A DNA stretch of 64,000 nucleotides from Beijerinckiaceae bacterium (GTDB taxonomy: Bacteria; Pseudomonadota; Alphaproteobacteria; Rhizobiales; Beijerinckiaceae). Made by a program: the position numbers and the translations under genes. The stretch spans positions 12,161 to 76,160 of the forward strand of contig JALOTF010000003.1 of the NCBI GenBank assembly GCA_025458025.1, written 5' to 3'. Positions 26,250 to 41,926 of this stretch are shown piece after piece. The notes beneath the pieces are model-generated. The model did no database searches, was not told where the DNA came from, and worked only from the letters and a program-made list of their open reading frames with translations. Every line of letters starts with the position of its first letter. Position 1 is the stretch's first letter.

Positions 26250-26456
26250 TCAGCTCAGACGCTTGGTCGCGATCACCCGGAAGATAGTGGATGCCACGAA
26301 GCTGCCAGCGGCAACCACCTCGAGCAGGCGATCTGTCAACACGCTCTGGTCCAGTCCAACAGTCTGGAACCCCATGACTGATAGGGCCAGAGAGCCCAAG
26401 CCTACCACATTCGCCCACACGGTGCGGCTCTGCAAAAGCGCCTTGGAATCGAACAT
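26250..26456 (-). CDS. Putative holin-like protein from an internal in-frame start
   Basis: GAGGAG Shine-Dalgarno 6 nt before the in-frame ATG at 26456; 68 aa with two TM segments and a basic C-terminus (ATKRLS). Confidence 0.55.
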   Translation of the reverse strand: MFDSKALLQSRTVWANVVGLGSLALSVMGFQTVGLDQSVLTDRLLEVVAAGSFVASTIFRVIATKRLS

Positions 26457-27017
26457 GTCTTTCTCCTCAGGTTGAGCCTCCCTGTCGGGAAGGCTGGTGG
26501 GCAAACGTGCAAGCTTCAGGCTTTCTTGCTCAATCGCTGTGACACGGCGCGTCCAACCGCGCCCGAACACGGCAAAAGTTGGCAGATGCTGCAGGAAGCG
26601 CATGCGGGCCGCGCACAGAGCGCGGATCAGTTCTCCGGCATCCGAAGCATCGAGCGCCGCCAGAGATTGAGGGCCGATCCGGCCATCGACCGTCACGGCA
26701 ACCAGCCCCTGAAGGGTGCGCGCGGCCCGCGAAGGGCCGGAATTGACGGCGTAATCGAACGCCGCGAGATCAACCCCGTGCGGCAGGTGATCCGCCGCGA
26801 GCGCATCCCAATATTGCGCCCGATAGATCGCCCCGGCCTCGGCGCGCGTCAGAGACCGCACTTCCGCTTTCTCCACGGGGCGCCCGCGCCAGGCCGCAAG
26901 CGTGGCCTGGGTGATACCCATCATCGTTGCGCCACCGGGATCGGAGGGATGGTCGGAATATCCACCCTCATGCTGAAGGACGAGCGCGAGCGCCCGCTCG
27001 AAATTGGCAGCGGCCAT
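26250..27017 (-). CDS. GH108 endolysin with PG-binding domain, fused in frame to a C-terminal holin-like 2-TM domain
   Basis: HEGGYSDHPSDPGGAT...GIT (GH108), FGRGWTRRV (PG_binding_3), linker, then MFDSKALLQSRTVWANVVGLG and two hydrophobic helices. Confidence 0.85.
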   Translation of the reverse strand: MAAANFERALALVLQHEGGYSDHPSDPGGATMMGITQATLAAWRGRPVEKAEVRSLTRAEAGAIYRAQYWDALAADHLPHGVDLAAFDYAVNSGPSRAARTLQGLVAVTVDGRIGPQSLAALDASDAGELIRALCAARMRFLQHLPTFAVFGRGWTRRVTAIEQESLKLARLPTSLPDREAQPEEKDMFDSKALLQSRTVWANVVGLGSLALSVMGFQTVGLDQSVLTDRLLEVVAAGSFVASTIFRVIATKRLS

Positions 27018-27040
27018 GGCCTTCTCCGAATGTGGCGGGC

Positions 27041-30000
27041 TCAGACGATCGGCAGGGTTACCGCGAGCGCGTCCCCTGCCCCGACACGGGCCGATACCTG
27101 CGCGATGGACACAGAAAGGTTCGTCTGCGGACTGCCGAAATCAGCGATTTCCTGGGCAGAAGGATAGAAAAATGCCGGGCTGTTGACAGACACGGTGCGC
27201 TTGATGGTTGCGCCGGCGCGAATCTCGATCCGGTATTCTTCGCGCTCCTCGCCGAGCGGCACCTCGTAGAGGTCCCAGTTATCACCGCCGAAACGGGTTC
27301 GTCTGATGAAGCTCAGGCGTATCCCGCCCGCCTCGCGCTTTGCCTTCGCGTGAACCGGCGCCAAAGGCCGGTAGGCGTTGCCCGTAATGGTTCCGCTCAC
27401 ACGGGCGGTCGAGGCATCGGCAACATCGCGCCCCGTGGGAATAACCGCGATGTCGATGGTCTGGCCAACCTGTTCGGCCGAGAGGCCGAGATCGACAATC
27501 GCTTCGTCCAGCAAGATCAGATCCGCACCAGGCGAGAGGGTGCGCGCCGCTGCGCTCTCCGAAAGCCCAACCCCGCGCAAAAGCTGCGAAAGGCGATAGC
27601 GCCGGTCTCCCACAAGCTGAGCCTGTCGGAAGAGCACGATCTCGAGCACGTCATCCGGCCCGATCAGCGCCAATGCATTGCTGCCCGCGAGCACTGCCAT
27701 TTCGTTGACGCTGGCGAGCGCACCCGAGGCAAGCACGATCTCGCACGTCGCATGCCGGTCCCATCGCCAGAGCGGACCGGGGGGCAACGTGGTCAGCAGC
27801 GTGCCGAACCGCGCCGCAATCAGCGCCTCGCCGAGCACCGCGCCATCGGCATCGGTCCGCGCGAGGGCATAGGGCCCGCGCCACGGCTCGGCGCGCATCG
27901 CAATTTGCAGCGGCCCTGTCGTTTCGGAACGCTGCAAAGGCAATTCAATCAGCCGCGCATAGGCCGCCCCGGGAAGCGCCGGCACGCCCGGTTCTTCAAT
28001 AGAATCATCGTCGATGGGCGCAAATCCCATCGTCTCGGGGTCATGTGACACCGCTTCGCACAGGCGTTCGCGCTGGTCGGTGATGCGCGTGAGGCGCACA
28101 AGTCGCTCACCGGCTTCCGTTTCCAGCGTCACGAGATCACCGACCTCCAACGCCCGCGCGCTGGGTGGCAGCGCGAAACGAAACACTTCCCGCGCGGCCC
28201 AGATCTCCGCGAGGCGTTGCTCGGCGAGCTTTCGTGCCCGCGCCTTGGGCAGGATCATCGCGCCATCATCACTCACCTCGCGCTGCGCCACGCTGCCATC
28301 GCGGCGGGCCTCGACAACCGTCTTCCGGAAGTCACGATCCGGATCCACAAAGCCGAGGCGAAAACTGCGCGGAAGGTCCCGCTCCTCGCTGCGCGCGATC
28401 TCGAGTTCGACCGCATTGCGGCCACTGGTGACCACGAGCGTATCCCGTGCAAGAACAGCGAGAGGTTCAGCAGCACGCGGCTTGACCGCCAGCGCTTCGC
28501 CCTCCCCCGAGGCAATCAGCCCGAAACCGTCGATCAACGGTTCCAAAGCCGCCCGCGCCGACATCGACCGGTCGATGACATAACCCTCAATCGCCTCCGC
28601 GAGCGGCTCGACCGTGCCCGCACCCACCTCGTGATCCGCCAGAACAGCGGTAATCAATTCGGGCAGCGGCGCGATTTCGAGACGACCGTTCAGCCAATGG
28701 CCGCGCGCGAAATTCGCACCATCCGCCCACTGGCTCTTCATGGCCGGGAAGGCCGGAAAAGGCCGCGCATCATAAGCCCAGGGAGCTATGAAATCGGGCG
28801 TCACCATCGGCCCGCCATAAACCGGGGAGACCGGGTTATGCGCCGTGACATGCCCCACGCTGGCGGTATCAAACCGGTCGAGCATGGCCTCGATCAGCCG
28901 ACGCTGGATCATGTCGTCGCGATGCCCCAGCGAGAAATGCGGCAGGCCGTTCTCGATGGATTTCGGGTCCGGGAAGATGTTCGGCTGGTTGGCGCCCTTG
29001 TCCACCGCGCCACAGCCGATCTCCGCGAGCAGGATCGGCTTGGAGCGCGGCTGCCAGCCGGTATTGGACGCGACTTCCACGCCACCAACACGCTCGCGAT
29101 GGGCATTCGACCACCATCCCACGAGATCCTTCGGGCGATAGATCCACGGCTTGTTGTAAGCCCCATCGGTGATTGCCGAGCGCACCTGCGCGGCGCGAGC
29201 TGCTGAATCCGCATAAAACCAGTCGAAGCCCTCGCCCGCTCCGATGCGATCCACGAGATAGGCGGGGTCATACGGTCCATCGGCGAGTGCCGCATCCGCA
29301 TGGGCCGTGCCCTCCCGCCAATCCGTGACCGGCGGATAGAAATCGATCGCAACCGCGCCAACCTCCGCATGGCTCCAGAACGGGTCCAGCGGAAAGCGCA
29401 CCTCCTGTCCGCCACCCTGCACATGCGCACCGAATTCGGTCCAGTCCGCGGCATACGTGATGCGCGTCGCAGGTCCGAGAATGGTGCGCAGTTCGGGCAG
29501 CAGGCCAACCAAAGCCGCCACCATCGGGTAGCTGCCGCCGCCAGCTGAAAGATGGGTCAGACCCACCAGTTCGGAGGCGATGAAAAACGTATCGACCCCA
29601 CCTGCCGCCTTCGCCAGCATGGCGTGATGCAGCACCATCCGCCGGAAGCTCCATTCCACAGGCCCGGAATAAACAACCTCATCCCCGGAAAGCGCGAAAT
29701 GGCTTGCCTGAGCCGTGCCAACAAAACTCGCGATGCTCGCATTCACAGCCGCCGTTCCAGCCGGACTTCCGGACTGCCCCGGTGCGGGATGGCAGGTGAT
29801 GCGCCCGCGCCAAGGGAAAGGCGGCTGGCTCCCCGTACCGGAATACGGATCCGGACGCCCATTGCCGGCGGGAACATCCATCAGGATGAAAGGGTGCAGC
29901 GCCACCTTGAGACCGCGCGATTTCAGGTCGCGGATCGCCTGGATCACGGACAGATCCGAGGGCGTTCCGCCATAGTTCGGACGGCCCTCGGTCGCGGAAA

Positions 30001-30964
30001 CCGCCAATGCAGACTCGCGCGTCAAGCCGCCGACCTGCCAGGTCTGGCCGGTCGTCACCTTGCCCTGTTTCTCCACACGCGGGGTTAGCGTGCAGTTCCC
30101 AACGCGCAGATCATCCCCGAACCACGCGCTGATCAGCGTCGCGCGCTCGAGATGCGGGCAGAGCGCCTGCAGATCGTCGATAGATTGCTCCCAGTCCGTG
30201 CCGCGCGTCCATTGCGAGCGGTTGAGCGCGCGCGACGTGCCGTAGCGGAAATCCTCGCGCACCTCATCGGTGGCGTAGCCGAACTCGGTCGAGCCGGGGA
30301 TGATGTTCACCGCCTTCAGCCGATCCGGCAAGCCGGGCATGGGACGCACGATCTCGAACGAAAACTGCGGCAGGCGATTGCCGTAATCCGCGAGTGGAAA
30401 GCGCTCGAACACGATGTAGGCGAGGCCCCGGAAAGCTGGCACCTGCGCCGTGCCCTGCTTTGCGACAATCAGCGGATCGGCCGGCTGATCCGCCTCCCCG
30501 CGATAGACGCGATAAGTCACGGCCGAGAGATCGACCGGCTTGCCATCGGCCCAGATGCGGCGCACGAAAGCCACAGGCCCCGCGCAGAGGCCGAGCGCGA
30601 CATTCGCGGAATAGACATAGCGGATGCTCTTCTGCCGCGCGGTCATGGAGGTCTTTCCGCCCACGCCGCCGGAACGCTCGACGATCTGCTGCTCCTCGAA
30701 TTCGGTCGCCCAGATCACCTGCCCGCCAAGCCGCACCCGGCCATAGATGCGGGGGATCGGCGCCCCCTCGCTCGCGGAAATCCCGTCGAGATCAGTGAGG
30801 CGCGGCCCCTGCTGCACGCGTCGCGCGCCTTGCCCCATCCAGGCCCGGTCGATCAACCCTCCGGCGAGGGCACCTGCCGCTTTCCCGAAGGCCGCGCCAA
30901 AGGTTCCGCCAAGGCTCTGGCCAAGCGTCGAACCGAGCAATTCGAATGCAATGGTCGCCATCAA
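27041..30964 (-). CDS. GTA megatron / host-specificity baseplate protein (g15-like)
   Basis: 1307 aa; GAPIPRIYGRVRLGGQVIWAT, AFRGLAYIVFE, TIM-barrel YAADWTEFG and IDFYPPVTDWR, GHWLNGR. Confidence 0.93.
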   Translation of the reverse strand: MMATIAFELLGSTLGQSLGGTFGAAFGKAAGALAGGLIDRAWMGQGARRVQQGPRLTDLDGISASEGAPIPRIYGRVRLGGQVIWATEFEEQQIVERSGGVGGKTSMTARQKSIRYVYSANVALGLCAGPVAFVRRIWADGKPVDLSAVTYRVYRGEADQPADPLIVAKQGTAQVPAFRGLAYIVFERFPLADYGNRLPQFSFEIVRPMPGLPDRLKAVNIIPGSTEFGYATDEVREDFRYGTSRALNRSQWTRGTDWEQSIDDLQALCPHLERATLISAWFGDDLRVGNCTLTPRVEKQGKVTTGQTWQVGGLTRESALAVSATEGRPNYGGTPSDLSVIQAIRDLKSRGLKVALHPFILMDVPAGNGRPDPYSGTGSQPPFPWRGRITCHPAPGQSGSPAGTAAVNASIASFVGTAQASHFALSGDEVVYSGPVEWSFRRMVLHHAMLAKAAGGVDTFFIASELVGLTHLSAGGGSYPMVAALVGLLPELRTILGPATRITYAADWTEFGAHVQGGGQEVRFPLDPFWSHAEVGAVAIDFYPPVTDWREGTAHADAALADGPYDPAYLVDRIGAGEGFDWFYADSAARAAQVRSAITDGAYNKPWIYRPKDLVGWWSNAHRERVGGVEVASNTGWQPRSKPILLAEIGCGAVDKGANQPNIFPDPKSIENGLPHFSLGHRDDMIQRRLIEAMLDRFDTASVGHVTAHNPVSPVYGGPMVTPDFIAPWAYDARPFPAFPAMKSQWADGANFARGHWLNGRLEIAPLPELITAVLADHEVGAGTVEPLAEAIEGYVIDRSMSARAALEPLIDGFGLIASGEGEALAVKPRAAEPLAVLARDTLVVTSGRNAVELEIARSEERDLPRSFRLGFVDPDRDFRKTVVEARRDGSVAQREVSDDGAMILPKARARKLAEQRLAEIWAAREVFRFALPPSARALEVGDLVTLETEAGERLVRLTRITDQRERLCEAVSHDPETMGFAPIDDDSIEEPGVPALPGAAYARLIELPLQRSETTGPLQIAMRAEPWRGPYALARTDADGAVLGEALIAARFGTLLTTLPPGPLWRWDRHATCEIVLASGALASVNEMAVLAGSNALALIGPDDVLEIVLFRQAQLVGDRRYRLSQLLRGVGLSESAAARTLSPGADLILLDEAIVDLGLSAEQVGQTIDIAVIPTGRDVADASTARVSGTITGNAYRPLAPVHAKAKREAGGIRLSFIRRTRFGGDNWDLYEVPLGEEREEYRIEIRAGATIKRTVSVNSPAFFYPSAQEIADFGSPQTNLSVSIAQVSARVGAGDALAVTLPIV

Positions 30965-31431
30965 TCCCTCCGGGCGGGAAAATCAAACAGGCCGGCGAGC
31001 TTCCGTCGCCAGAGCGGCACGAGCGCCACTTCCGCCACGGAGGCCCCGTCATGGGCATGCACGAAGGTTTCTGGGCCCGTCGCGATGCCGCAATGCTTCG
31101 CCGGCAGATGCGCCCGCCAACGAAAGAGCAGCATCATTCCAAGGCGGATCTCCGTATCCATCGGCAGCGGTAGGAGATGTCGGAAGGCACCTCCCAGAAG
31201 CTGGTCCGGTGCACCGAGTTCCGCCCAGGCCGGTGAATAGGCCGGCACATCCTCCGGCTCCTCGCCTACAGCCTCCCGCCACACCCCACGCAGCAGGCCG
31301 AGGCAATCCGCCCCCACACCCTTCAGCGACGCCTGATGCTGGTAGGGCGTGCCGATCCAGCCACGCGCCACGCGCACGATCTCCTCCCGGCGCGCGACAT
31401 CGTCGCGCCCGTCCCTGCTCATTCGCGGCAT
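30961..31431 (-). CDS. GTA NlpC/P60 cell-wall peptidase (g14-like)
   Basis: ARGWIGTPYQHQAS, GADCLGLLRGVWR, AKHCGI and FVHAH. Confidence 0.93.
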   Translation of the reverse strand: MPRMSRDGRDDVARREEIVRVARGWIGTPYQHQASLKGVGADCLGLLRGVWREAVGEEPEDVPAYSPAWAELGAPDQLLGGAFRHLLPLPMDTEIRLGMMLLFRWRAHLPAKHCGIATGPETFVHAHDGASVAEVALVPLWRRKLAGLFDFPARRD

Positions 31432-31440: not shown

Positions 31441-32325
31441 TCAGAGTTGAACGAGCGGGCGGCCCTGATGCCGCCCCTCGCCGGGCTGGGCATAGACAAA
31501 GGCGAATTCCGGCGCGGGGATCAGTGGAAACCCCATGAAATTCAGCGAATTGGCGAAGCGGTCGCGGCAGGTGGCGAAACGTTTGTCACAGCCCGCGATC
31601 GCCACCACGGAATCCCCCGGAAGAAGGTTTGCGGGCAGCCCCTCCCAGAGGGTGATCGCCTCGCCATCATGCATGCGAATGGGGCGCGAGAGCCCGGCAT
31701 TGGCGCCGGTCACCACCAACAGCCGGCCGCGTGCAAACAAGCCAGCGATGGGCGTTGCGAATTCCGGCGCGCTGATGTGATGCCGGCCATCAGTCGTGGA
31801 GACGCTGGCCGCAACACGCCAGACGGGATTGTCGAGATCCACACCACAGGCCGCATCCCCCAGTTCGGCCGAACAGCCGGAGGAGTAGAGCCGTCCCTTT
31901 TCGAGATCGAGCGCGTGCAGCGCATTGCGCGTTTCGGCGATGAAAGCGCCATCTTTCCGGCGAATCTCGCCGATGGTCACGACATCGATCAGGCAATCGA
32001 GCGTCGGCGCGGTCCAATCCACCAGCCAGCGGCGCAATTCGGCACCATCATAGCGTCCGGCTTCGATATCCTGGGCCGTCACGCGTGCGCTGGAAAGGGC
32101 CCCAGTGATTTCGCCATTAGTGGCCGCGAGGCCGGTCTCGCTCTCCACCGCCGAGGCCTCGATGCCACTCGCGGCCTCGAAAACCTGCGCGCCGATGGTG
32201 AGCGTGCGGTCATGGTCGGTGAAGCCGAGCGTCACGCCATCCTTGCGGGTCAGCAGCCAGCACTGGCAATGCGTCGTCACCCCGGAAGCGAGCCCTAGGG
32301 CGATGGTCGGCGGAAGAGATTTCAT
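31441..32325 (-). CDS. GTA baseplate hub protein DUF2163 (g13-like)
   Basis: CWLLTRKDGVTLGFTDHDR, CSAELGDAACGVDL and GCDKRFATCRDRFANSLNFMGFP. Confidence 0.93.
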   Translation of the reverse strand: MKSLPPTIALGLASGVTTHCQCWLLTRKDGVTLGFTDHDRTLTIGAQVFEAASGIEASAVESETGLAATNGEITGALSSARVTAQDIEAGRYDGAELRRWLVDWTAPTLDCLIDVVTIGEIRRKDGAFIAETRNALHALDLEKGRLYSSGCSAELGDAACGVDLDNPVWRVAASVSTTDGRHHISAPEFATPIAGLFARGRLLVVTGANAGLSRPIRMHDGEAITLWEGLPANLLPGDSVVAIAGCDKRFATCRDRFANSLNFMGFPLIPAPEFAFVYAQPGEGRHQGRPLVQL

Positions 32326-32328
32326 GGC

Positions 32329-32970
32329 TCAGACCCGGATTTCGATGAGCGGAATGTTGGGAATGGCCCCAGCCTCGAAGGCCGAGAGATCAACCTCGAG
32401 GAAGTCCGTGTCGAAGCGCACGGGCACGTCGAACACGAAACCGGCGGTCACATTGGCACCGGCCGGCGGGATATGCCCGGCCCGGAAGGTGACGAGGCCC
32501 GTCGCCGCATCGCAATCGAAATGCGTGCCGGCAACGCGCTCGGTGCCGTTCACCGCCACACGCACGCTGCCGGTGACCGGCTTCGTAATGGGTCGTTCAT
32601 AGGGCGCGTGGGCCGCGCCATATCGTTTGATGAGCGGGAAACTCGCCCGCGTGCCATCACCCGTTCCGAGCGGCTGATCATTCGGCAAAGGCGGCGCGTT
32701 TTTCGGGGCGGAGGTCCAGTCCAGCCGGTCGCGAAAGCGGAACCCGTAGAGCCGTCCGCGCCGCTCCTCGAAGAACGCAACGATGGCCGAGAGCCCCTCG
32801 ATGGAGCGCACACCGTAACCCGCATCGTATTTCCGCCGCGACAGCGCCCAGCGCGCATTGCGCTCCTCGCGCCCGCTGGAGAGCGTCACGATCTCCGTGC
32901 GCCGCTCCGGCCCGCCGCGTGCGCCGAGCGCCACCTCGAGCGGGAAGCGCACCTCATGAAATCCGGCCAT
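32329..32970 (-). CDS. GTA distal tail protein DUF2460 (g12-like)
   Basis: MAGFHEVRFP, GGPERRTEIV, FFEERRGRLYGFRFRD and FDVPVRFDTD. Confidence 0.94.
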   Translation of the reverse strand: MAGFHEVRFPLEVALGARGGPERRTEIVTLSSGREERNARWALSRRKYDAGYGVRSIEGLSAIVAFFEERRGRLYGFRFRDRLDWTSAPKNAPPLPNDQPLGTGDGTRASFPLIKRYGAAHAPYERPITKPVTGSVRVAVNGTERVAGTHFDCDAATGLVTFRAGHIPPAGANVTAGFVFDVPVRFDTDFLEVDLSAFEAGAIPNIPLIEIRV

Positions 32971-33562: not shown

Positions 33563-33740
33563 GGGCGTTGGTCCTCTCATCGGGGAAAAGGCGCATCAGC
33601 GCGTGAAATGTCTCGCCATCCGGTGCATCCGGAAGGCCTGTCTCGCCCCGCAGGCCACGAAGAGCGGCAGCGAGTTCCGGCATCGTCATGGCCCAGAAGG
33701 CGTCAGGCGAAAGCCGCAGCAGGCCGAACCCCAGCGCCAT
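33552..33740 (-). CDS. GTA small tail assembly chaperone (g10.1-like)
   Basis: LRLSPDAFWAMTMPELAAA motif; the reading frame stays open upstream through AFPWGEA. Confidence 0.75.
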   Translation of the reverse strand: MALGFGLLRLSPDAFWAMTMPELAAALRGLRGETGLPDAPDGETFHALMRLFPDERTNAHAG

Positions 33741-35305: not shown

Positions 35306-35880
35306 GCCGAGAGCCCTCCGAGCCGCAAGCGGCGGAAAGGCTTCAGCAGCGCGCGCACCGGTGCCGGCAAGCCACGCTCGACAATCGTGGCATCGCCGCG
35401 ATTGTCATACCAGAACGCGATGAGCTGCCGCATCGCGAGGCGCAGGGGGTCGGGCACCTGATTGGCGAATTCCCCGAAGCCAAGGCGCAGATCGATCTCG
35501 ATGCCCGCGCGCAGCCGCCCCGGCGCGGGTCGCGTATTGGGGCGAATGGCATCGCGCTCCACCCCCTTGATGATCTCGAAATCGCCGGCCGGGATCGCCT
35601 GCGGCGAGCCATTGGCGGCGAAGACCCGCCCGCCCGTCACAGCGAGCACGCGACCGATGGGCACGGGGATCGTCTCGCAAGCCGGCCAGGAATCGCCCAC
35701 GATCCGCCAGTTCTGCGCGAGCAGCACGAGGCCGATCTCGCTTTCCACCATCAACCGGGCCGCGATGATCAGCGCCTGGATGAGGCTGTCCTCATCGCTG
35801 CCCTCCACGCGGAGCCAGCCCTTGGCCTCGGCGAGGCTCACGGGCTCGAGCTGCGGCCCGTCCACCAGTAGCGGGATCAT
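35302..35880 (-). CDS. GTA head-tail adaptor (gp6-like, g6-like)
   Basis: EPVSLAEAKGWLRV, AGIEIDLRLGFG and VPDPLRLAMRQLIAFWYDNRG. Confidence 0.9.
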   Translation of the reverse strand: MIPLLVDGPQLEPVSLAEAKGWLRVEGSDEDSLIQALIIAARLMVESEIGLVLLAQNWRIVGDSWPACETIPVPIGRVLAVTGGRVFAANGSPQAIPAGDFEIIKGVERDAIRPNTRPAPGRLRAGIEIDLRLGFGEFANQVPDPLRLAMRQLIAFWYDNRGDATIVERGLPAPVRALLKPFRRLRLGGLSA

Positions 35881-35907
35881 GGGTCAGTGCCTTTCTGTCG
35901 CAGAAGA

Positions 35908-35953
35908 GCACCGCGCCGGGCCATCGGCCTTGCGCGGCAGGGAGGCGCGGTGC
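35908..35953 (-). terminator. Long hairpin between capsid-region and tail genes (candidate internal terminator)
   Basis: Perfect 10-bp arms GCACCGCGCC / GGCGCGGTGC; followed by UCUUCU on the minus-strand transcript. Confidence 0.4.
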
Positions 35954-35966
35954 AAAGGTCCGCGCC

Positions 35967-36767
35967 GTGGAACTCATTCGAAAAACTGGCCGCGTCGCGC
36001 GGCGCGCTGCATTCTTGGTTGCCGCTGTCGCCATGCTGGCCTCGCCGGCCCATGCGTTGGGCGGCGATCAATCCCGGGCCGATCCCGACCTTGCGGCGCA
36101 TGTCGTCATGGTGCTCTCGCGCGAAGGCAACCGGCATGGCGCCTGCACCGGAACGGTCATAGCGCGCGACGTGATCCTCACGGCGGCGCATTGCGTGGCG
36201 GGCAAGAAGCAGGTCGTCGTGGCCTATGCCGAGAGCGGGAGCCATGTGCTCCAGCGCGTCACCAGCCGCGCCATCCATCCTGGCTTTTCCGGCCGGGCGC
36301 GCGTCTCGCTCGATCTCGCTTTGATCCGGCTCGAATCCCCGCTGCCCGCGCGTTTCACGCCCTTGCCCTTTGACCGGGGCGAGGTGGAGCACCGCGTCGG
36401 CGCAACGCATCTCATTGCGGGTTATGGCATGCAGCGCGAGAGTGACGAATCCAGCGCCGGCACCTTGCGCAGCGCCAGCGTCGGCGTGCTGCCGCGGCTT
36501 TTCCCGCGCTTCCTGCGTCTGGGAACCTCGCCCAGCGCGGATCTCTCCGATTTTGCGATCTGCACCGGCGATTCCGGCGGGCCGGTCCTCACCTCCGGCT
36601 TTGGCGGCAAGGTGATTGTTGGCGTGGTCTATGGCCGCGAGAGCTTCGGCGATGCCCGCTCCTGCGGCACGATTGGCCAGGCGGTGCGCCTTGCCCCGCA
36701 GGCCGGGTGGATCGAGCAGAATCTCGCGCGCTGGTCGGGCGAGGCTCGCCCCCGCCCGACCCGCTGA
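35967..36767 (+). CDS. Secreted trypsin-like (S1) serine protease, antisense to the GTA operon
   Basis: Signal peptide (AFLVAAVAMLASPAHA); catalytic triad motifs LTAAHCV, DLALIRL and CTGDSGGP. Confidence 0.92.
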   Translation: MELIRKTGRVARRAAFLVAAVAMLASPAHALGGDQSRADPDLAAHVVMVLSREGNRHGACTGTVIARDVILTAAHCVAGKKQVVVAYAESGSHVLQRVTSRAIHPGFSGRARVSLDLALIRLESPLPARFTPLPFDRGEVEHRVGATHLIAGYGMQRESDESSAGTLRSASVGVLPRLFPRFLRLGTSPSADLSDFAICTGDSGGPVLTSGFGGKVIVGVVYGRESFGDARSCGTIGQAVRLAPQAGWIEQNLARWSGEARPRPTR

Positions 36768-36773
36768 GCCTGC

Positions 36774-38009
36774 TTACACCGAGAAGCGCAGCAGCTTGAT
36801 GGCGTCGAAATCCTGCACGCCACCGCCCACGCGCTTCGTCGTGTAGAAGATCACGTAGGGCTTGGTGGAGAACGGATCACGCATTGTGCGGATGCCGATG
36901 CGATCCACCACCACATAGCCGCGCTGGAAATCACCGAACGCAATCGAGAGGCTGTTCGCCGCGATATCCGGCATGTCCTCGGCTTCCACAACGGGGAAAT
37001 TGAGGAGCGTGGAACGCGCCCCCGCCACACTCGGCGGCTGCCAGATATAGTTGCCGGTGGTGTCCTTGATCTTGCGGATCACGCCTTGCGTCTTCCGGTT
37101 CATGACGAAGGTCCCGTTCTGGCGATAGACCGCCTTCAGGGAATGGGCGAGATCCACGAGGTTGTCCGAGGGGTTGGTGGTCGCGAAGGCACCAGCCGCC
37201 CCAGTGGCGACGAAGCCTAGATTGTTCCAACTCCAGCTCGCCTGCGCCACGGTGGGGTAGGTCAGGAATCCCTTCGGCTTGTTCGTGCCGTTGCCATTCA
37301 CGAAGGCCGTGGTCTCGGCCGCCGCGAAAGCCCGGACGATCTCGTTCGAGATCCATTCCTCGATATCCACCGCCGCATCATCGAGCATGGCCTGCGTCGC
37401 CGCCGGCTGCGTGAAGAGTTCGCCCGTGGGGAAGTCGAGCGCCACGAAGGCGCTGGCCTGCACCGCGTTGCCCGGCGCAGCATCGGCCGTCCAGCCCGAT
37501 TGCGCGCCGGTCGGCGTCACCGCCTTGCGAAGGCCGGAGCCCGAAACCGCCTGGATGCTCGCGATCGAACGGATCGGCGACAGCCCCGCGATGCGCGCAA
37601 GCACGCTCTCCTCGGCCAGCGGCGGCAGCAGGTAACCGCCATCCGGCGCGGTGAGGCTCGTCGAGGATTTCACCTCCAGCCGATGCAAAGCCTGCGTCTC
37701 GCCGGAGCGCATATAGCCTTCGAAGGCGCCCTTGTGTTCAAGCGCCGCAAGCGAGACATCATCCTCACCGAGGCCCAGAGCCGGGCGACGGCCCTTGGTT
37801 TCCAGCGTGCGGATGCGATCAAGGCAGAGGTCGATCGCGCGGTCCATGCGGGCGAGCTTCTCGACCTGGAGCGGATCGGAAGCCGCCTTGCGGTCGTCAT
37901 TCTCGCCGCGATACTCGCCAACGAGGCGGTTGAGCGTGCCAAGATCATCGGCAGGCTGGATCGCCTTGATTTCCGGAGCGGCAGCTTCCGGGTGACGCAG
38001 ATGGGTCAT
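36774..38009 (-). CDS. GTA major capsid protein (HK97 fold, g5-like)
   Basis: DGGYLLP, QAMLDDAAVDIEEWI, FVNGNGTNKPKGFL and YTTKRVGGGVQDFDAIK; RBS GAGGAC before ATG at 38009. Confidence 0.95.
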   Translation of the reverse strand: MTHLRHPEAAAPEIKAIQPADDLGTLNRLVGEYRGENDDRKAASDPLQVEKLARMDRAIDLCLDRIRTLETKGRRPALGLGEDDVSLAALEHKGAFEGYMRSGETQALHRLEVKSSTSLTAPDGGYLLPPLAEESVLARIAGLSPIRSIASIQAVSGSGLRKAVTPTGAQSGWTADAAPGNAVQASAFVALDFPTGELFTQPAATQAMLDDAAVDIEEWISNEIVRAFAAAETTAFVNGNGTNKPKGFLTYPTVAQASWSWNNLGFVATGAAGAFATTNPSDNLVDLAHSLKAVYRQNGTFVMNRKTQGVIRKIKDTTGNYIWQPPSVAGARSTLLNFPVVEAEDMPDIAANSLSIAFGDFQRGYVVVDRIGIRTMRDPFSTKPYVIFYTTKRVGGGVQDFDAIKLLRFSV

Positions 38010-38024
38010 GGTGGTCCTCATGGT

Positions 38025-38615
38025 TCAGAACTGCGCCATCCGGCGCCGGGAAGAGACGGAGGCATGCAAGCCGCCGCCGATTGAGCCCCTGCCTTCGCCG
38101 CGTGGCGCAATGCGCGCCTGCGGCAGCAGGGGAAAGCTGACGATGGAAATCTCCCAGAGATCGAGCTTCTGGAGCCGACGCAGACCCGTCGCGGGGTCGC
38201 GCGTCTCGCTCGCGGCCTTGAAGCCGATGGACAGCCCGTCGATGCTGCCGCGAGAGACCAATCGATGCAGGTCGCGCGCCTTGGGCAGATCAAGATCGAG
38301 TTTCCCAGCCACGCGCAGGCCGCGCTGGTCTTCCGCGATGTCGAGCCACTCACCCACGGGCGAGCCGGGATCGTGCTGCCAGAGCAGCTTCACGCCGAGC
38401 GCCGTGCGCTTGGCGAGGCTCGCGCGGAAGGCGCCGGGCATCACCACATCGCGCCCAAGATCCGCCACGCCGAACAAGGAGGCATAGCCCTCGAAATAGC
38501 CATCCGCATCAATTTGCGGAGGGGCACCCGCGCTCCCGCTCTTCTGAACAGGCGCGCGGGTGCTTCTTCCGGCCGGCAGGGAGGCGGACCGGCCGAAAGC
38601 GACTGAGTTCGGCAT
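38025..38615 (-). CDS. GTA prohead protease (HK97 family, g4-like)
   Basis: FEGYASLFG, LLWQHD, GLSIGF and LWEISIVSFP; RBS AAGGA. Confidence 0.93.
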   Translation of the reverse strand: MPNSVAFGRSASLPAGRSTRAPVQKSGSAGAPPQIDADGYFEGYASLFGVADLGRDVVMPGAFRASLAKRTALGVKLLWQHDPGSPVGEWLDIAEDQRGLRVAGKLDLDLPKARDLHRLVSRGSIDGLSIGFKAASETRDPATGLRRLQKLDLWEISIVSFPLLPQARIAPRGEGRGSIGGGLHASVSSRRRMAQF

Positions 38616-38631
38616 GGGCAATTCCTTGGTG

Positions 38632-38847
38632 TCAGGGTTTGCGCGCGGCATCCCGGTCGAGACGGGTGATACGCAGTTTCCGCACCGGCTCGGATTTCGT
38701 CTCGAGCTTGGGCACGGGCCGTTCCAGCCGCTCGATCAGGTCGAAGAAGCGTCGGAAGAGCCGCACCGGCTCAAAGCCGGCCGGCGAATGGATGTCCGCC
38801 GGCCGCCTGGCCCGGCGGGTCAGGTTCGGTCGTCTGAAGCGCCACAT
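38632..38847 (-). CDS. Small basic hypothetical protein in the GTA head module
   Basis: 71 aa, 17 Arg; GAGGGA RBS overlapping the end of the previous gene; fills the gap exactly, but could be a spurious GC-rich frame. Confidence 0.4.
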   Translation of the reverse strand: MWRFRRPNLTRRARRPADIHSPAGFEPVRLFRRFFDLIERLERPVPKLETKSEPVRKLRITRLDRDAARKP

Positions 38848-38853
38848 GGTTGG

Positions 38854-39051
38854 TTATCCCTCGGATGAGCCTGTTCGCTGCCGTCGATTGAAACGTGCGA
38901 TTTCACGGACAAAGGCATCGAAACGACGATGAGCCGCTGCACTTTCCCTCAGAAGATGCACGCAGGCCGCCGAGGCGGCTCCGGCCCACAGGAACAGGAC
39001 GAGATGCGCGAGATCGCCCCGCGCAATGATGCTCTCGGTGACCGCATTCAT
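38854..39051 (-). CDS. Small hypothetical protein with one hydrophobic segment (g3.5 position)
   Basis: MNAVTESIIARGDLAHLVLFLWAGAASAACVHLL...; starts 7 nt after the portal stop. Confidence 0.65.
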   Translation of the reverse strand: MNAVTESIIARGDLAHLVLFLWAGAASAACVHLLRESAAAHRRFDAFVREIARFNRRQRTGSSEG

Positions 39052-39058
39052 GGTGCCA

Positions 39059-40261
39059 TCACGGGCGGCCATTGCGCTGCGGGCGTGGCTTTGCCGCCGT
39101 GCCATAGCCGAGGGCTGCGCGCTTTTCCTCGTCGCTGAGGAAGCTCGCTTCGGCCACGCGCTTCCAGAGCGCGCTGCGATCCTCGGCGATGGCCTCGATC
39201 TGGTCGAGATCCGGCAGGATGCTGATGCGCGCGGCATAGGCCGGCTGCAGCCATTGCGCCATCGCTCCCGAAACACGCCGCACCAGCGGCACGATGGTCT
39301 GCCGCCAGAAGGCACGGTTCGCCTCCGCATAGTTCGAATAGGTGTTGTCGCCGGGCAGACCCAGCAGCAGCGGTGGCACGCCGAAAGCCAGCGCGATTTC
39401 CCGCGCCGCACCATTCCGCGCCTCCTGGAAATCCATATCCTTGGGCGTGAGCGCCAGCGGCTTCCAGTCGAGCCCGCCTTCGAGCAGGATCGGCCGACCC
39501 GCATTGCTCTGTCCTGAAAAGGCCTGTTCCAGCTCGGCTTTCAGGCGATCGAATTGCAAGTCCGTCAGGTTTTCCGGCGAGGCATAGACCAGCGCGCCGG
39601 AGGGCCTGGCAGAGTTATCCAGCAAGGCCTTGTTCCAGCGACTGGCGGATTCGTGCATCTCCAGCGGAACCTGCGCTGCCGAAAGCGGCGCATAACCCTG
39701 GTGATCATCCAGCGGATCCGCGAGCCTCAGATGAAGGATCGGCTGCAAGCCATCCGGCGCGACCGGGATCAGCGATCGGGCTGTCCCGAGGCTGTATTCA
39801 TAGCCGCGCGGCCAACCATCCGGGCCGGGCACCACCTTCACGCGATCCGGTCGCAGGGCGTGGATCTCGCGCGGCGCATCCTCGCCATCCGCGATGAGAT
39901 GCAGATAGGCATTCCCGAAGAGCAGAAGATGCGTGAACACCCCGTCAAGCAGGGCAATCCCGCTCTCGCGCGGGTTCGGCCGCTCCAGCAGGCGTTCGAG
40001 CGGGTGGTCCGCCACCTCCGCCCCTTCCACCGTCAGCGCGAGCGGCACATTGGCCGCAGCCTCGGCGATGAGCCGCACGCAGCGATGCACCACCGGGTTG
40101 CGATGAAACCCGGCGCGCACCAACGCCACGCCGCTCGCTTCACCGAACAAGCCGCGTCCGGGATGGTGAAAAGCCAGCATGGGAAAGCCCGCCTTGCGTT
40201 CGGGCGCACGGGGCTCCGGCCCCGGCTTGGCGCCGAGGAGACGGGAGAGGATCGATGTCAT
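39059..40261 (-). CDS. GTA portal protein (g3-like)
   Basis: NPVVHRCVRLIAEAAA, HLLLFGNAY, LDNSARPSGAL, AREIALAFGVPP and NTYSNYAEANRAFWR. Confidence 0.95.
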   Translation of the reverse strand: MTSILSRLLGAKPGPEPRAPERKAGFPMLAFHHPGRGLFGEASGVALVRAGFHRNPVVHRCVRLIAEAAANVPLALTVEGAEVADHPLERLLERPNPRESGIALLDGVFTHLLLFGNAYLHLIADGEDAPREIHALRPDRVKVVPGPDGWPRGYEYSLGTARSLIPVAPDGLQPILHLRLADPLDDHQGYAPLSAAQVPLEMHESASRWNKALLDNSARPSGALVYASPENLTDLQFDRLKAELEQAFSGQSNAGRPILLEGGLDWKPLALTPKDMDFQEARNGAAREIALAFGVPPLLLGLPGDNTYSNYAEANRAFWRQTIVPLVRRVSGAMAQWLQPAYAARISILPDLDQIEAIAEDRSALWKRVAEASFLSDEEKRAALGYGTAAKPRPQRNGRP

Positions 40262-40284
40262 GAAAGCCTCCGGGGGCGTAAGAT

Positions 40285-41583
40285 TCAGCTCAGCTGGCGC
40301 ACCCGAGGGGCAACGCCATCATTCTGGGAAACCAGCGCGGTGACCGCCCAGACCAGCGCATCGAGCCGGTCGGGTGATCGGCCATCCGCGAGGCCATCCG
40401 GCCCGAAGGCCGTCATTTCATCTTCCAGCGCCGGGAAAGCGCCAACGTGATGCACCCGTCCCTGTGCGTAGAAAGCCGCAACGGGCTCGGCGCGCAGGCG
40501 CTTGCCCCGCGTCGCCCGCACCGTTGTCACCGGCACGGCCTCATCCAGCGCGGAGATGACGCTGGCGACCATATCGCCGCCCTGGTTGACCTCCGCGAGC
40601 AGTTGGTCCGCCTCATGGCTGCGGAAGGCCGCGATGGCCCGTGCGGCCCAAGCCTCGGGCTTGGCGGCCTCCAGTGAGGCATCTTCCAGAACGTAGATCG
40701 CGCCATCCGCGGCGCGCCCCGCGACAACGATTCCGCAGCGTCCGCCGCGCTTGCCGCCGGCAGGCGGGTCGACGGCCACCACAATCCGTTCGAGATCGGG
40801 CGCTTCCGCCACCCTCGCCCGTTCAAAGGTCTCGCGCCGGAACAGCGCGTCGGGGTTCTCCTCGACAAAGAGCCCTTCGAGTTCCTGCCGGCCCAGAGAC
40901 GTCCCCGCATACCGATCCACCACCTGCGCGAGGAAGGCCGGCGCGAGATTGACCGCGTTGGCGCGGGTTGAAGCGCGCGTCACCGCCGCATGCGGATCAT
41001 TCGCGAGCCGTTTCAGCAGCGGGATCGGCCGCGGCGTGGTCGTGATCACCTGCCGGGGCTGGTCACCCAGACGAAGCCCGAATTGCAGCATGTCGAATGC
41101 GGCTTCCGCATAACGCCATTTCGCGAGCTCATCGCACCACGCCGCCTCGAATTGCGGACCGCGCAAGGATTCCGGATCTTCCGCCGAAAAGCCTTGCGCA
41201 ATCGCGCCGTTCGGCCATTCCAGCCGGCGACGGCTGGCATTCCATTCTGGCCGTTCATCAGGCCGATGCACCGCACGCAAGCCGGAAACGCCTTCCACCA
41301 TCACCTCGCGCAGGTCGTTCTGCGTCTCGGCAACGATGGCAATGCGCCCAACGGGCTCCGCGCTGAAGGGCGGCAGGCCCATCGCAAGGCCCCGTACCCA
41401 TTCCGCGCCGGTGCGGGTCTTGCCTGCCCCGCGCCCGCCGAGCACCAGCCAAGTGGTCCAGGGCCCGCCATCGCGCGCCTGCGCCGGCGGCAATTGGTCT
41501 TCGCGGGCGAAGAGCGTCCAGTCCGTCGCGAAGGCCTGAATGGCCTCTGGCGAGAGGCTCTCAAGCAGAACCGGCCCCTTCAT
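40285..41583 (-). CDS. GTA large terminase (g2-like)
   Basis: Walker A GGRGAGKT, Walker B AAWCDE, nuclease VVAVDPP and SPDRLDALVWA. Confidence 0.95.
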   Translation of the reverse strand: MKGPVLLESLSPEAIQAFATDWTLFAREDQLPPAQARDGGPWTTWLVLGGRGAGKTRTGAEWVRGLAMGLPPFSAEPVGRIAIVAETQNDLREVMVEGVSGLRAVHRPDERPEWNASRRRLEWPNGAIAQGFSAEDPESLRGPQFEAAWCDELAKWRYAEAAFDMLQFGLRLGDQPRQVITTTPRPIPLLKRLANDPHAAVTRASTRANAVNLAPAFLAQVVDRYAGTSLGRQELEGLFVEENPDALFRRETFERARVAEAPDLERIVVAVDPPAGGKRGGRCGIVVAGRAADGAIYVLEDASLEAAKPEAWAARAIAAFRSHEADQLLAEVNQGGDMVASVISALDEAVPVTTVRATRGKRLRAEPVAAFYAQGRVHHVGAFPALEDEMTAFGPDGLADGRSPDRLDALVWAVTALVSQNDGVAPRVRQLS

Positions 41584-41926
41584 CCTGGAGACGCAACTGC
41601 TCAAGCCTTTCCGCAAGCTCGCGACGGAATTCGGCGAGAGCGCGGGCGGGCGTCGCGAGTGAGGCATGGTTCTGTTTCTCCGCCGCCTTCGAGGCGATAG
41701 CCTCGTCGTCGATGGCCACGAGATCGCGGATGGTCCGCGCGATGATGGCGAGCGTCTTGGCGTCACGTTCCAGCGCCTGCGGGTCCTCCCGCTGGGCGGC
41801 GAGGCGGCTTTCCACCTCATCCACCTGCTTTTCCGCCGTCTGCCAGAGGCGGGAGACAATGCGCCGGCGCCGGGTGATGCCCGGTCGGCGGGTGGTGGGT
41901 GATGAAACAGGTCGATTGGCGTTCAT
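41561..41926 (-). CDS. Putative small terminase (g1 position)
   Basis: 121-aa helical protein (RDAKTLAIIARTIRDL...RRELAERL) overlapping the large terminase start by 23 nt; RBS GGGGAAG. Confidence 0.65.
   Translation of the reverse strand: MNANRPVSSPTTRRPGITRRRRIVSRLWQTAEKQVDEVESRLAAQREDPQALERDAKTLAIIARTIRDLVAIDDEAIASKAAEKQNHASLATPARALAEFRRELAERLEQLRLQDEGAGSA

Follow-up and report, generated by a model that had tools for sequence, protein, structure and literature searches.

When considering a block of phage-like structural genes in an alphaproteobacterial chromosome, one question comes first: is it a GTA whose function has been kept, or the trace of a phage? The locus in question lies within a 64,000-nt stretch of DNA (the window) from a Beijerinckiaceae bacterium (assembly GCA_025458025.1, contig JALOTF010000003.1, positions 12,161 to 76,160). 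The first-pass annotation placed at 26250-41926 an apparently intact GTA head-tail operon with its own lysis gene. These coordinates proved exact, 26250 being the final base of the stop codon of a GH108 gene, and 41926 marking the ATG of the ORF at the g1 position. As argued below, it is probable, judging from sequence, that this member of the Hyphomicrobiales, which looks to be uncultured, has here an RcGTA-type GTA cluster that is fixed in the chromosome and passed on vertically, and whose function purifying selection has preserved.

All the RcGTA head-tail positions, g1 to g15, are represented in 26250-41926 by open frames on the minus strand, and the homologues of head-tail genes g2-g15, as judged from profile matches, order and spacing, keep the RcGTA order at this single locus. 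The head side of the cluster reads as follows:

41561..41926, minus strand: g1-position ORF, 121 aa, probable GTA-type small terminase (position, conservation, three-helix model)
40285..41667, minus strand: g2 large terminase (Terminase_6N E 2.5e-31, Terminase_6C E 3.4e-21)
39059..40261, minus strand: g3 portal (PF04860 E 2.5e-86; TIGR01537 214 bits)
38854..39051, minus strand: 65-aa helix-loop-helix ORF, probably the g3.5 equivalent (conserved after the portal gene)
38632..38847, minus strand: 71-aa lineage-specific ORF (found in L001, L002 and L004)
38025..38615, minus strand: g4 prohead serine protease (Peptidase_S78 E 2.5e-34; alternative start 38651)
36774..38021, minus strand: g5 HK97-type major capsid protein (E 1.2e-90 to RcGTA Rcc01687, 6tb9; TIGR01554 339 bits)
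35967..36767, plus strand: trypsin-like S1 serine protease (PF00089 E 8e-23)
35881..35966, no strand assigned: divergent intergenic region, 86 nt (conserved block GGCGCGGACCTTTGCACCGCGCC ... GCAAG in the alignment of the window with L001-L004)

The connector, tail and baseplate genes follow:

35302..35880, minus strand: g6 head-tail adaptor (TIGR02215 E 2e-41, 142 bits; E 3.8e-07 to RcGTA adaptor Rcc01688)
34970..35305, minus strand: g7 head completion protein, or stopper (Phage_HCP E 2.3e-14)
34563..34973, minus strand: g8 tail terminator (Tail_completion_gp17 E 4.4e-22)
34132..34542, minus strand: g9 major tail (tube) protein (Phage_tail_2 E 2e-47)
33788..34123, minus strand: g10 tail assembly chaperone (PF11836 Phage_TAC_11 "GTA-gp10" E 2.3e-18)
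33552..33740, minus strand: g10.1 second chaperone frame (PF09550 Phage_TAC_6 E 6.7e-11)
32981..33580, minus strand: g11 tape measure protein, 199 aa (NF058675 RcGTA_tape E 3e-43, 148 bits, under the equivalog cut-off of 220)
32329..32970, minus strand: g12 distal tail protein (TIGR02217 Rcc01695 family 296 bits; DUF2460 E 7e-84)
31441..32325, minus strand: g13 baseplate hub (TIGR02218 260 bits; PF09931, PF09356)
30961..31431, minus strand: g14 NlpC/P60 cell-wall peptidase (TIGR02219 E 3.8e-51, 173 bits)
27041..30961, minus strand: g15 megatron (NF048004 1603 bits against a cut-off of 800, a GTA-specific match; GTA_TIM E 8e-123)

The early claim that the core genes are homologous to those of RcGTA was thus upheld gene for gene by profile and structure-sequence matches. 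In particular, g15 aligns over its full length, residues 1-1303 against 1-1302 of RcGTA Rcc01698 (6tba chain 8A/6teh, E 1.9e-258), and occurs once in its own genome. The tight packing with overlapping starts and stops was likewise borne out, the spacing between cluster genes being -29 to +47 nt with the exception of a larger g1/g2 overlap, as was the host-like composition, with a GC content slightly higher in the cluster (66.5%) than in the genome (64.0%). The description of the cluster as an operon of uninterrupted ORFs stood only in part: every position from g1 to g15 is open, but the opposite-strand S1 protease gene breaks the same-strand run. As for the two chaperone frames, g10.1 is in the -1 frame relative to g10, open from 33842, and has an ATG of its own, preceded by a G-rich Shine-Dalgarno sequence; inspection of the frame geometry revealed no canonical slippery heptamer.

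At the head end, two assignments call for comment. The g1-position ORF has no family match in profile searches, and in a fold search T4-type small terminases made up four of the top 11 matches, every one with E>1. This ORF is kept directly upstream of TerL in L001-L006, L034 and L073, its substitution pattern is coding-like, and its model contains no HTH and shows three helices after an N-terminus that is basic and unstructured, so that position, conservation and predicted shape make it a probable small terminase of the GTA type. For g2, the start at ATG 41667 yields 460 aa and a 107-nt out-of-frame overlap with g1, the start at 41583 an overlap of 23 nt; the former is favoured because the N-terminal similarity of the relatives reaches upstream of ATG 41583, where the Met is not conserved. 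Further down, the apparent 211-nt gap between portal and protease is filled by the conserved 65-aa gene, which tblastn recovers behind portal in 58 of 80 related loci and which shows a dN/dS of 0.06-0.15; it has no match in Pfam or NCBIfam and is probably the equivalent of g3.5. The neighboring 71-aa ORF, also lacking a family match, was found at E<=1e-5 only in L001, L002 and L004 among the loci inspected (L001-L015); relaxing the threshold adds L003, whose match is weak and stop-containing. The dN/dS of this ORF against L001, L002 and L004 is 0.17-0.37.

Has the cluster been maintained by selection? A comparison of dN/dS with orthologues, proposed as a check at the outset, indicates purifying rather than relaxed selection: for the concatenated cluster the ratio is 0.119 (95% bootstrap 0.108-0.132) against the nearest relative, L001, and 0.200 against L002, with single genes at 0.04-0.41 (the lowest being g9, 98% identical to that of L001); two flanking host genes gave similar values, 0.05 and 0.145. 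Gene by gene, dS in the cluster runs from 0.27 to 1.07 (concatenated 0.73) and brackets the values of the flanking genes (0.57-0.68). The flanks are conserved in five relatives (L001-L005 and L081-L085), where the cluster likewise lies between PBP1A-CxxC and RR-HK, and the relatives rank equally by identity in cluster genes and in host genes. Synteny of the flanks, together with this shared ranking of divergence, indicates that the cluster has been passed on vertically at a stable place in the chromosome. The cluster type is common in Hyphomicrobiales, g15 being found in 110 of the 151 sampled genomes of the order, and the locus is a further member of a known GTA type.

These data bear directly on the two phage scenarios. 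The cluster could be a decaying prophage remnant, as might be thought of phage-like structural genes that stand alone, the genes of the life cycle missing. This candidate is contradicted by the dN/dS of 0.12, by the openness of every frame and by the occupation of the same chromosomal site in relatives with capsid identities of 56-89%; dS is like that of the host flanks, the promoter (see below) is conserved, and the scenario seems very improbable. Alternatively, an inducible prophage like Methylobacterium nodulans LC1-LC5 or vB_MseS-P1 could have the cluster as its structural module: the closest public relative is listed as Methylobacterium sp., and such prophages bear many RcGTA homologues along with rcc00555-like lysis genes (PMC11409702). 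However, the cluster lacks integration and replication genes, as the first-pass annotation had it, and lysogeny genes as well. Within ~15 kb on each side, the ORFs scanned, a subset of those present, include none for an integrase, excisionase, repressor or replication protein, and neither a tRNA nor an att repeat or site was detected there. The flanking ORFs scanned are of the housekeeping kind (ccm genes, glnE, two-component systems, PBP1A, sufE, msrB) and syntenic across genera, and the cluster exists in a single copy in the genome. We consider this second phage scenario scarcely credible.

Candidates for the regulatory DNA and the activator of the cluster are also at hand:

42115..42177, minus strand: promoter block upstream of g1 (TAGGAATTT, perfect TTGACA at 42158-42163, spacer palindrome, downstream CACGCTCCCGAATTG box)
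41927..42114, minus strand: probable 5' leader, ~200 nt, from promoter to g1 (no third-position substitution bias)
51393..52678, minus strand: activator pair, gafY-like at 52223-52678 and gafZ-like at 51393-52226 (Bac_DnaA_C HTH E 6e-13; DUF6456 E 4e-32)

In the alignment of the window with L001-L004, the promoter block is the most conserved part of otherwise diverged intergenic DNA, and it is unique in the genome even with up to 4 mismatches allowed. The leader is conserved in parts at the nucleotide level; an ATG at 42061 opens a frame, yet the substitutions are not coding-like, their distribution over codon positions being 7/5/10 against L001 and 16/12/17 against L002. The nearby activator, noted early on, could be confirmed as a pair of genes with a 4-nt overlap, ~9.5 kb from g1, with mucR upstream and sufE adjoining, a neighborhood that has already been published (PMC9638019).

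The 893-nt break in the same-strand run contains the S1 protease gene, which is convergent with g5 and divergent from g6 and encodes a protein with a signal-peptide-like N-terminus and the TAAHC and GDSGGP motifs. The gene has a dN/dS of 0.14, and 47 of 68 related loci likewise hold it, antisense, between g5 and g6; in most of these the protease start is ~10-220 nt from that of g6, even where the g5-g6 gap measures 2-8 kb. In distant loci, a different recurrent motif, TGTCAAC, occurs at the same protease/g6 position. The head-to-head pairing of the two genes may point to a shared control region, and the protease perhaps has a role in release or maturation; the conserved block between them might serve g6-g15 as an internal promoter or operator.

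At its 3' end the cluster carries a lysis gene, with a second frame nested in it:

26250..27017, minus strand: GH108 muramidase, the endolysin gene (PF05838 E 9e-31, PF09374)
26250..26456, minus strand: nested in-frame two-TM ORF, 68 aa, candidate class-II-type holin or membrane anchor (Met188 with Shine-Dalgarno sequence)

That the cluster has its own lysis gene, as was claimed, agrees with the endolysin-type character of this protein (phrog_315 endolysin E 7e-53; PDB 7dnp E 8e-52) and with its position: the gene, which has a Shine-Dalgarno sequence of its own, follows g15 on the same strand at a distance of 23 nt. Residues 1-171 of the protein form the muramidase with its PG_binding_3 domain; a disordered linker comes next, and two helices at the C-terminus make up a membrane module. 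The protein has no signal peptide. Its catalytic motif is intact (HEGGY at 16-20, with H16-E17-G18-G19 as invariant columns), and in the model pLDDT is >=90 over most of the N-terminal domain and <50 at residues 175-198, the helices spanning 198-214 and 224-254. The module matches no holin family in profile searches, and no spanin was identified. Met188 is invariant in 8 proteins, within a linker that is hypervariable in both sequence and length, and an AGGAG-type Shine-Dalgarno sequence precedes its codon by 5-11 nt in all eight. Against L081, L082 and L084 dN/dS is ~1 in the linker (against L083 it was not computable), and it is 0.06-0.38 in the module. In some families the module forms a gene of its own: in L097 and L100, the equivalent two-TM ORF of 61-63 aa overlaps a GH108 gene of 177-179 aa by ATGA. 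Judging from these sequence features, the lysis locus looks like a full endolysin-holin cassette, the holin being a candidate.

It could be objected that the GH108 protein is a host autolysin whose gene just happens to adjoin the cluster, much like SagA of Brucella and TtsA of Salmonella, two muramidases associated with secretion. Its best solved relatives are indeed 7dnp, a "secretion activator protein", which we take to be the SagA of Brucella, and the TtsA-type 6v40/6v3z, and in 83 of the 110 g15-bearing genomes there is no GH108 gene within ~3 kb of g15, although some of these loci are broken by contig ends. Yet in the remaining 27 genomes, which represent many families of the order, an endolysin gene adjoins g15 directly or lies up to ~3 kb downstream, and the present gene is the sole GH108 gene of its genome. 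The close same-strand placement with a ribosome-binding site of its own and the lack of a signal peptide also speak against a host autolysin, as does the constant company of a holin-sized two-TM module, whether fused or as a separate overlapping ORF; furthermore, a few large clusters have homologues of the RcGTA endolysin rcc00555 at their 3' end (Shakya et al. 2017, PMC5721377). On balance, the autolysin explanation appears quite unlikely, and we retain the gene as the endolysin of the cluster.

A further alternative accepts that the particle genes are maintained and denies transduction: the element would lack adsorption organelles, or would confer another benefit, such as stationary-phase survival, DNA repair, or the killing or lysis of kin. 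The tail-fibre gene not seen in the window on first reading, of the DUF2793 type (rcc00171/CCNA_02456), was not found anywhere in the 97%-complete genome, whereas the same search recovers that of the Caulobacter control; purifying selection proves only that some function has been retained; and the benefits of the Caulobacter GTA have been tied to survival and repair (PMC9632790). On the other hand, the megatron, hub and distal-tail proteins, which carry the receptor-binding and penetration domains in RcGTA, are complete from end to end, and the genome encodes ComEC and DprA for uptake. Tail fibres and head spikes assist RcGTA in adsorption but lie outside its core cluster. A non-transducing element is accordingly unlikely in our estimate, albeit the most plausible of the alternatives considered.

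Taken together, the agreement with RcGTA in gene order and gene-for-gene homology, the single copy with syntenic flanks, host-like dS and low dN/dS, the lack of tRNA, att repeats and integrase at a GC content slightly above the genome mean, and the conserved promoter, the gafYZ pair, the endolysin adjoining g15, the comparative support for the holin module and the presence of ComEC and DprA are the grounds for reading the locus as an RcGTA-type GTA. Counted on the other side were the missing DUF2793 gene, the antisense gene that splits the cluster, the identification of g1 by position and shape alone, the g11 score below its cut-off and the absence of an identified spanin.

How does this cluster compare with known systems? 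RcGTA (Rhodobacter capsulatus, rcc01682-rcc01698, Rhodogtaviriformidae) shares with it the g1 to g15 content and order, a small helical protein without HTH at the terminase position, a GafA-type activator, here split into gafY and gafZ, and an endolysin of the type of rcc00555, presumably a GH108 protein. Unlike RcGTA, which has its lysis gene at a distant locus, the present cluster has it at the 3' end, with a holin-like module fused to or nested in the endolysin frame; it also has the antisense S1 protease gene between g5 and g6 and two small ORFs between portal and protease, and it lacks the DUF2793 tail-fibre gene. CcGTA (Caulobacter crescentus, under GafYZ/RogA/IHF control) is similar in its split GafY/GafZ, its long leader between promoter and first gene, and its core structural genes; read-through of the CcGTA cluster requires processive anti-termination (PMC11150451). 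Caulobacter, in which the DUF2793 protein is present, has no holin or endolysin and is lysed by the CARD-NLR-like LypABC encoded ~2.4 Mb away (PMC13236601), and we found no GH108 in the Caulobacter control genome, in contrast to the classical muramidase encoded here in cis.

RcGTA-like large clusters of Rhizobiales/Hyphomicrobiales have reportedly been described by comparative genomics by Lang and Beatty (2007). They are also known from the comparative work of Shakya et al. 2017 (PMC5721377) and of Kogay et al. 2019 (PMC6821227), and the present locus is one such cluster, sharing the stable chromosomal site, the vertical inheritance and the occasional rcc00555 homologues at the 3' end. In the large-cluster literature searched, we found no description of the g6-paired antisense protease, the post-portal 65-aa ORF or the fused/nested holin module; nor did the literature searched report that any RcGTA-type GTA of Hyphomicrobiales yields particles. 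BaGTA of Bartonella, from the same order, is a functional GTA; it differs from the present cluster in phage ancestry and organisation (PMC9662315) and, as a system, is not homologous to it. The closest parallels to the endolysin are M4Lys of Salmonella phage BSPM4 (PMC7143992) and the endolysin of Hafnia phage Enc34 (PMC8943055), which also combine an N-terminal catalytic domain, no signal peptide and a C-terminal membrane segment with a charged tail end; M4Lys lyses cells alone and needs its TMD to do so (PMC7143992). The present protein, that of a GTA rather than of a phage, differs by GH108 plus PG_binding_3, by two predicted helices instead of one, and by a conserved internal Shine-Dalgarno sequence and Met which might yield a separate holin-sized product.

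A working cycle can be envisaged by analogy with the RcGTA and Caulobacter systems, to which this genome itself contributes the conservation of the promoter and the presence of ComEC and DprA. Upon relief of a repressor encoded elsewhere, GafY and GafZ would activate the conserved promoter, and transcription would proceed through the leader into the head module, that is, a small terminase that lacks a sequence-specific DNA-binding domain (for RcGTA TerS, see PMC6854486), TerL, portal, the g3.5-like protein, prohead protease and HK97 capsid. The connector, tail and baseplate genes g6-g15 could then be expressed either by read-through across the antisense protease gene, anti-terminated in the manner of GafZ (PMC11150451), or from the second conserved element, in the 86-nt protease/g6 region, acting as a promoter. 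Headful packaging would fill the particles with host DNA. The last gene would provide lysis in cis: the cytoplasmic muramidase may reach the wall via its own C-terminal two-helix module and/or the 68-aa holin made from the internal start. The recipient would take up the DNA via ComEC and DprA.

It is possible, and we propose it only tentatively from the comparison of sequences, that in one clade of Hyphomicrobiales the RcGTA-type element has become both self-contained and bipartite, with head and tail modules split by a conserved secreted protease gene paired with g6, and with a terminal lysis cassette in which a class-II-type holin arises from an internal start in the endolysin frame. If true, this would be a third solution to the problem of GTA release, beside those of RcGTA, whose holin/endolysin operon is unlinked, and of CcGTA with its CARD-NLR-like LypABC. 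The g6-paired protease gene bears on how a 15-kb cluster that holds an antisense gene is transcribed, and the nested-or-separate holin module on how GTAs time and carry out the lysis of their hosts. RcGTA-type clusters are predicted in most genomes of the Hyphomicrobiales, an order with rhizobia, methylotrophs and pathogens among its members, and the present locus, with its intact cluster, nearby activator and lysis function in cis, would be a convenient test case.

The observation of the cluster is confirmed: open frames are found at all head-tail gene positions (g1-g15) of the RcGTA-type gene transfer agent (GTA), a well-known kind of cluster, on the minus strand, from 41926 down to 27041, and a lysis gene follows them. 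The end coordinates in the first-pass annotation are exact: the last gene has its stop codon at 26250, and the first has its ATG at 41926. The features with a family or domain assignment are:

minus strand: large terminase (Pfam/NCBIfam)
minus strand: HK97 portal (Pfam/NCBIfam, E 2.5e-86)
minus strand: S78 prohead protease (Pfam/NCBIfam)
minus strand: HK97 capsid, g5 (TIGR01554, 339 bits)
minus strand: adaptor, g6 (TIGR02215, 142 bits)
minus strand: head completion protein (Pfam/NCBIfam)
minus strand: tail terminator (Pfam/NCBIfam)
minus strand: tail tube (Pfam/NCBIfam)
minus strand: two tail chaperones (Pfam/NCBIfam, including PF11836 'GTA-gp10')
minus strand: tape measure (RcGTA_tape, 148 bits, below the equivalog cut-off of 220 bits)
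minus strand: distal tail protein (Rcc01695 family, 296 bits)
minus strand: baseplate hub (260 bits)
minus strand: NlpC/P60 peptidase (173 bits)
minus strand: megatron, g15 (NF048004, 1603 bits against a cut-off of 800)
26250-27017, minus strand: GH108 lysis gene, 255 aa, with a GGAG Shine-Dalgarno sequence
35967-36767, opposite strand to the cluster: trypsin-like S1 protease (GC3 and Pfam; PF00089, E 8e-23)
51393-52678: gafY-like and gafZ-like genes (DnaA-type HTH; DUF6456) with a 4-nt overlap, between mucR and sufE

In a comparison with the solved RcGTA particle, the megatron matched over residues 1-1303 (1-1302 in RcGTA) with an E value of 1.9e-258, the capsid with 1.2e-90 and the adaptor with 3.8e-07. 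Spacing within the cluster ranges from -29 to +47 nt, the g1/g2 overlap excepted; a canonical slippery heptamer for a g10/g10.1 frameshift was looked for and none was found.

The first-pass annotation had proposed a dN/dS comparison, with relaxed selection as the outcome that would speak against a functional element; no relaxation was seen. Against the nearest relative (L001), with a per-gene dS of 0.27-1.07, most genes had a dN/dS of 0.04-0.20, with g1 (0.41) and a 71-aa ORF (0.30) above that range; the concatenated value (18 ORFs, 4599 codons) was 0.119, with a bootstrap 95% interval of 0.108-0.132, and it was 0.200 against L002, another of the four closest relatives. The flanking genes for PBP1A and for a CxxC protein gave 0.05 and 0.145, respectively, against L001.

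The cluster is probably a GTA, not a prophage. In line with the earlier statement that integration and replication genes are absent, the flanking ORFs scanned encode cytochrome-c biogenesis proteins, GlnE, two-component systems, PBP1A, SufE and MsrB; a search of the window gave no tRNA, and direct repeats in the flanks did not go beyond imperfect ones at chance level. Relatives with capsids only 56-89% identical, a Chelatococcus strain among them, share the gene order PBP1A - CxxCxxCC protein - cluster - GH108 - response regulator - kinase. L003, which comes from an isolate, belongs to the same GTDB genus as the window. The genome, which is 97% complete, has one g15 and one GH108. The GC content of the cluster is slightly raised, not lowered (66.5% vs 64.0% for the genome); raised GC is the direction reported for GTAs.

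Both flanks hold conserved neighbours. The YkgJ-type CxxCxxCC protein (42195-42752, minus strand), encoded just upstream of the GTA promoter, matches phrog_33999, a phage family of unknown function (E 3e-52), and keeps its position in L001-L005. At the other end, the gene for an OmpR-type response regulator begins 27 nt after the GH108 stop codon and is followed by that for a HAMP histidine kinase (24062-26222, minus strand); relatives share 81-96% identity in the regulator, well above the level of conservation of the GTA genes, and the related loci L081-L085 show the same order, g15-GH108-regulator-kinase. Transcription of the GTA cluster may run on into these two genes.

That the cluster has a lysis gene of its own is borne out by a GH108 muramidase of the endolysin type, with a PG_binding_3 domain (residues 1-171), encoded 23 nt after g15. 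It matches phrog_315 'endolysin' (E 7e-53) and PDB 7dnp (E 8e-52) and carries an HEGGY stretch with the invariant Glu17; a signal peptide is absent. In its structure model, the N-domain is globular and confidently predicted, residues 175-198 form a disordered linker, and two long helices come after it. We compared the gene with GH108 genes located behind g15 in 14 further genomes of the order Hyphomicrobiales. In three of these, the protein has only 172-179 aa, and in two of the three (L097 and L100) a separate ORF of 61-63 aa with two hydrophobic helices follows GH108 with an ATGA overlap, which is the arrangement of a classical endolysin and a holin of class-II size. In the remaining 11, as in the window, an equivalent two-helix module is fused in frame (249-292 aa). 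Alignment of eight fused proteins shows that the Met opening the module (Met188 in the window) is an invariant column within a linker hypervariable in length and sequence, and all eight have an AGGAG-type Shine-Dalgarno sequence 5-11 nt upstream of this internal Met. Against L081, L082 and L084 (L083 was not computable), dN/dS is about 1 for the linker, 0.10-0.20 for the catalytic part and 0.06-0.38 for the membrane module. The simplest reading is that the gene yields a full-length membrane-associated endolysin together with a candidate 68-aa holin-like product from the internal start. Alternatively, the full-length protein might export itself, by analogy with M4Lys, an endolysin with a C-terminal TMD for which self-export has been shown (PMC7143992). 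Either way, with a holin or with self-export, the cluster carries a predicted lysis function that is self-sufficient.

Of the 110 g15-bearing genomes in the order sample, 22 have GH108 immediately behind g15 and five more have it within about 3 kb. The GH108 gene of the window is probably equivalent to rcc00555, the RcGTA endolysin gene. A literature search gave no useful information on the domains of the rcc00555 protein; the equivalence draws on Shakya et al. 2017, who had noted that in a few clusters the 3' end carries a homologue of rcc00555 (PMC5721377). Unlike the cluster described here, RcGTA has its endolysin and holin at a distant locus, and Caulobacter has neither, lysis being performed by LypABC (PMC13236601, PMC9632790); consistently, no GH108 was found in the Caulobacter control genome. 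In several other families (seen in L093, L094, L098, L101, L102, L104 and L105), a conserved ORF lies behind GH108. Its product, about 100-125 aa long and bearing a signal peptide, resembles a small periplasmic domain protein; the window has no counterpart at that place.

The description of the cluster as uninterrupted did not hold, as the 893-nt stretch between g5 and g6 contains the S1 protease gene on the opposite strand. The protease has the His and Ser motifs and a signal-peptide-like N-terminus. A 177-aa ORF on the minus strand (35877-36410) was rejected as a gene, being antisense to the protease gene with its coding-type GC3 and family match. Of 68 related loci, 47 have an antisense homologue of the protease between g5 and g6, and in some genomes (G144, G082 and G027) there are two tandem copies. 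In most of the 47 loci the protease start lies about 10-220 nt from that of g6, even where other genes have widened the gap to 2-8 kb, so that the protease and g6 form a divergent pair. In the even sample of the order, the arrangement is limited to a few families and thus marks a clade. Within the 86-nt divergent region, one block is conserved in the four closest relatives; another recurrent motif, TGTCAAC, lies at the same place in more distant loci, 20-40 nt upstream of g6 in those of Xanthobacteraceae type. The tail module might have its own promoter or, on the other of two readings, might depend on read-through of the GafZ type, by analogy with Caulobacter (PMC11150451). On the minus strand, a terminator-like GC hairpin with a T run is present at 35989-36003, which places it within the 5' part of the protease gene, some 110 nt ahead of g6; a consensus promoter and terminator scan of the cluster, this hairpin included, gave no more sites than shuffled sequence.

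At the head of the cluster, substitutions in the g1 ORF from ATG 41926 (121 aa) follow a coding-type pattern. The ATG at 42061 was rejected as its start: the 135 nt upstream of 41926, though in frame, do not follow this pattern and therefore represent a leader rather than coding sequence. Several families have the 121-aa protein conserved immediately upstream of the large terminase. Its model, with a basic disordered N-terminus and three helices (mean pLDDT 69), fits the published description of the RcGTA small terminase as helical, coiled-coil and lacking an HTH domain (PMC6854486); a fold search had T4-type small terminases among the top matches, none of them significant. For g2, ATG 41583 was rejected and ATG 41667 is favoured, since homology in relatives extends further upstream and Met 41583 is not conserved. 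In the ensuing 107-nt out-of-frame overlap with g1 (41561-41667), one frame encodes the C-terminal helix of g1 and the other the terminase N-terminus with SLR..L..C, and both are conserved across families. The apparent 211-nt gap between the portal and protease genes is a 65-aa gene (38854-39051, minus strand), easily overlooked because a longer spurious ORF overlaps it. Of 80 related loci, 58 have it directly behind the portal gene. It has a dN/dS of 0.06-0.15 and the motif RGDLAHLxLFLWA ... RRFDxFVRELxRFN, and is probably the true counterpart of g3.5. The adjacent 71-aa ORF was seen, among the loci inspected, in the closest relatives only. Searches of Pfam, PHROG and NCBIfam returned no match for g1, the 65-aa and 71-aa ORFs, or the C-terminal membrane module of the lysis protein.

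In the four closest relatives, where the intergenic DNA has otherwise diverged, the most conserved part is a block of about 60 nt upstream of the leader. It contains TAGGAATTT, a perfect TTGACA, a spacer that is palindromic and, near the predicted start site, a CACGCTCCCGAATTG box, a layout that recalls the Caulobacter promoter, where a putative GafZ element between -35 and -10 precedes a 229-nt leader (PMC11150451). No further copies of the block were found in the genome (a 23-mer is unique at up to 4 mismatches), the 8-mer TAGGAATT occurs there at about chance number (20 seen vs about 23 expected by our estimate), and no GafYZ regulon could be inferred from this search. The nearby activator noted previously is indeed present, the gafYZ-like pair lying in the mucR-gafYZ-sufE neighbourhood published for the order (PMC9638019). 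The tail-fibre gene, not seen in the window at first reading, is not found genome-wide either, as judged by the DUF2793 domain, which was detected in the Caulobacter control genome (homologue CCNA_02456). Genes for ComEC and DprA are present.

Of 151 genomes sampled evenly from the order, 110 have a g15 with the GTA TIM domain (102 of 134 high-quality ones), in line with the 60% of Kogay et al. 2019, as cited in PMC9638019. In the literature searched, we found no paper on particle production by an RcGTA-type element of the order; BaGTA of Bartonella is unrelated. Taken together, the data support, with caveats, the interpretation of the cluster as a GTA the function of which is predicted only. 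Three comparative details go beyond the literature searched: the divergent pairing of the protease with g6, the conserved 65-aa ORF, and a putative holin module that some lineages have nested and others as a separate ORF.
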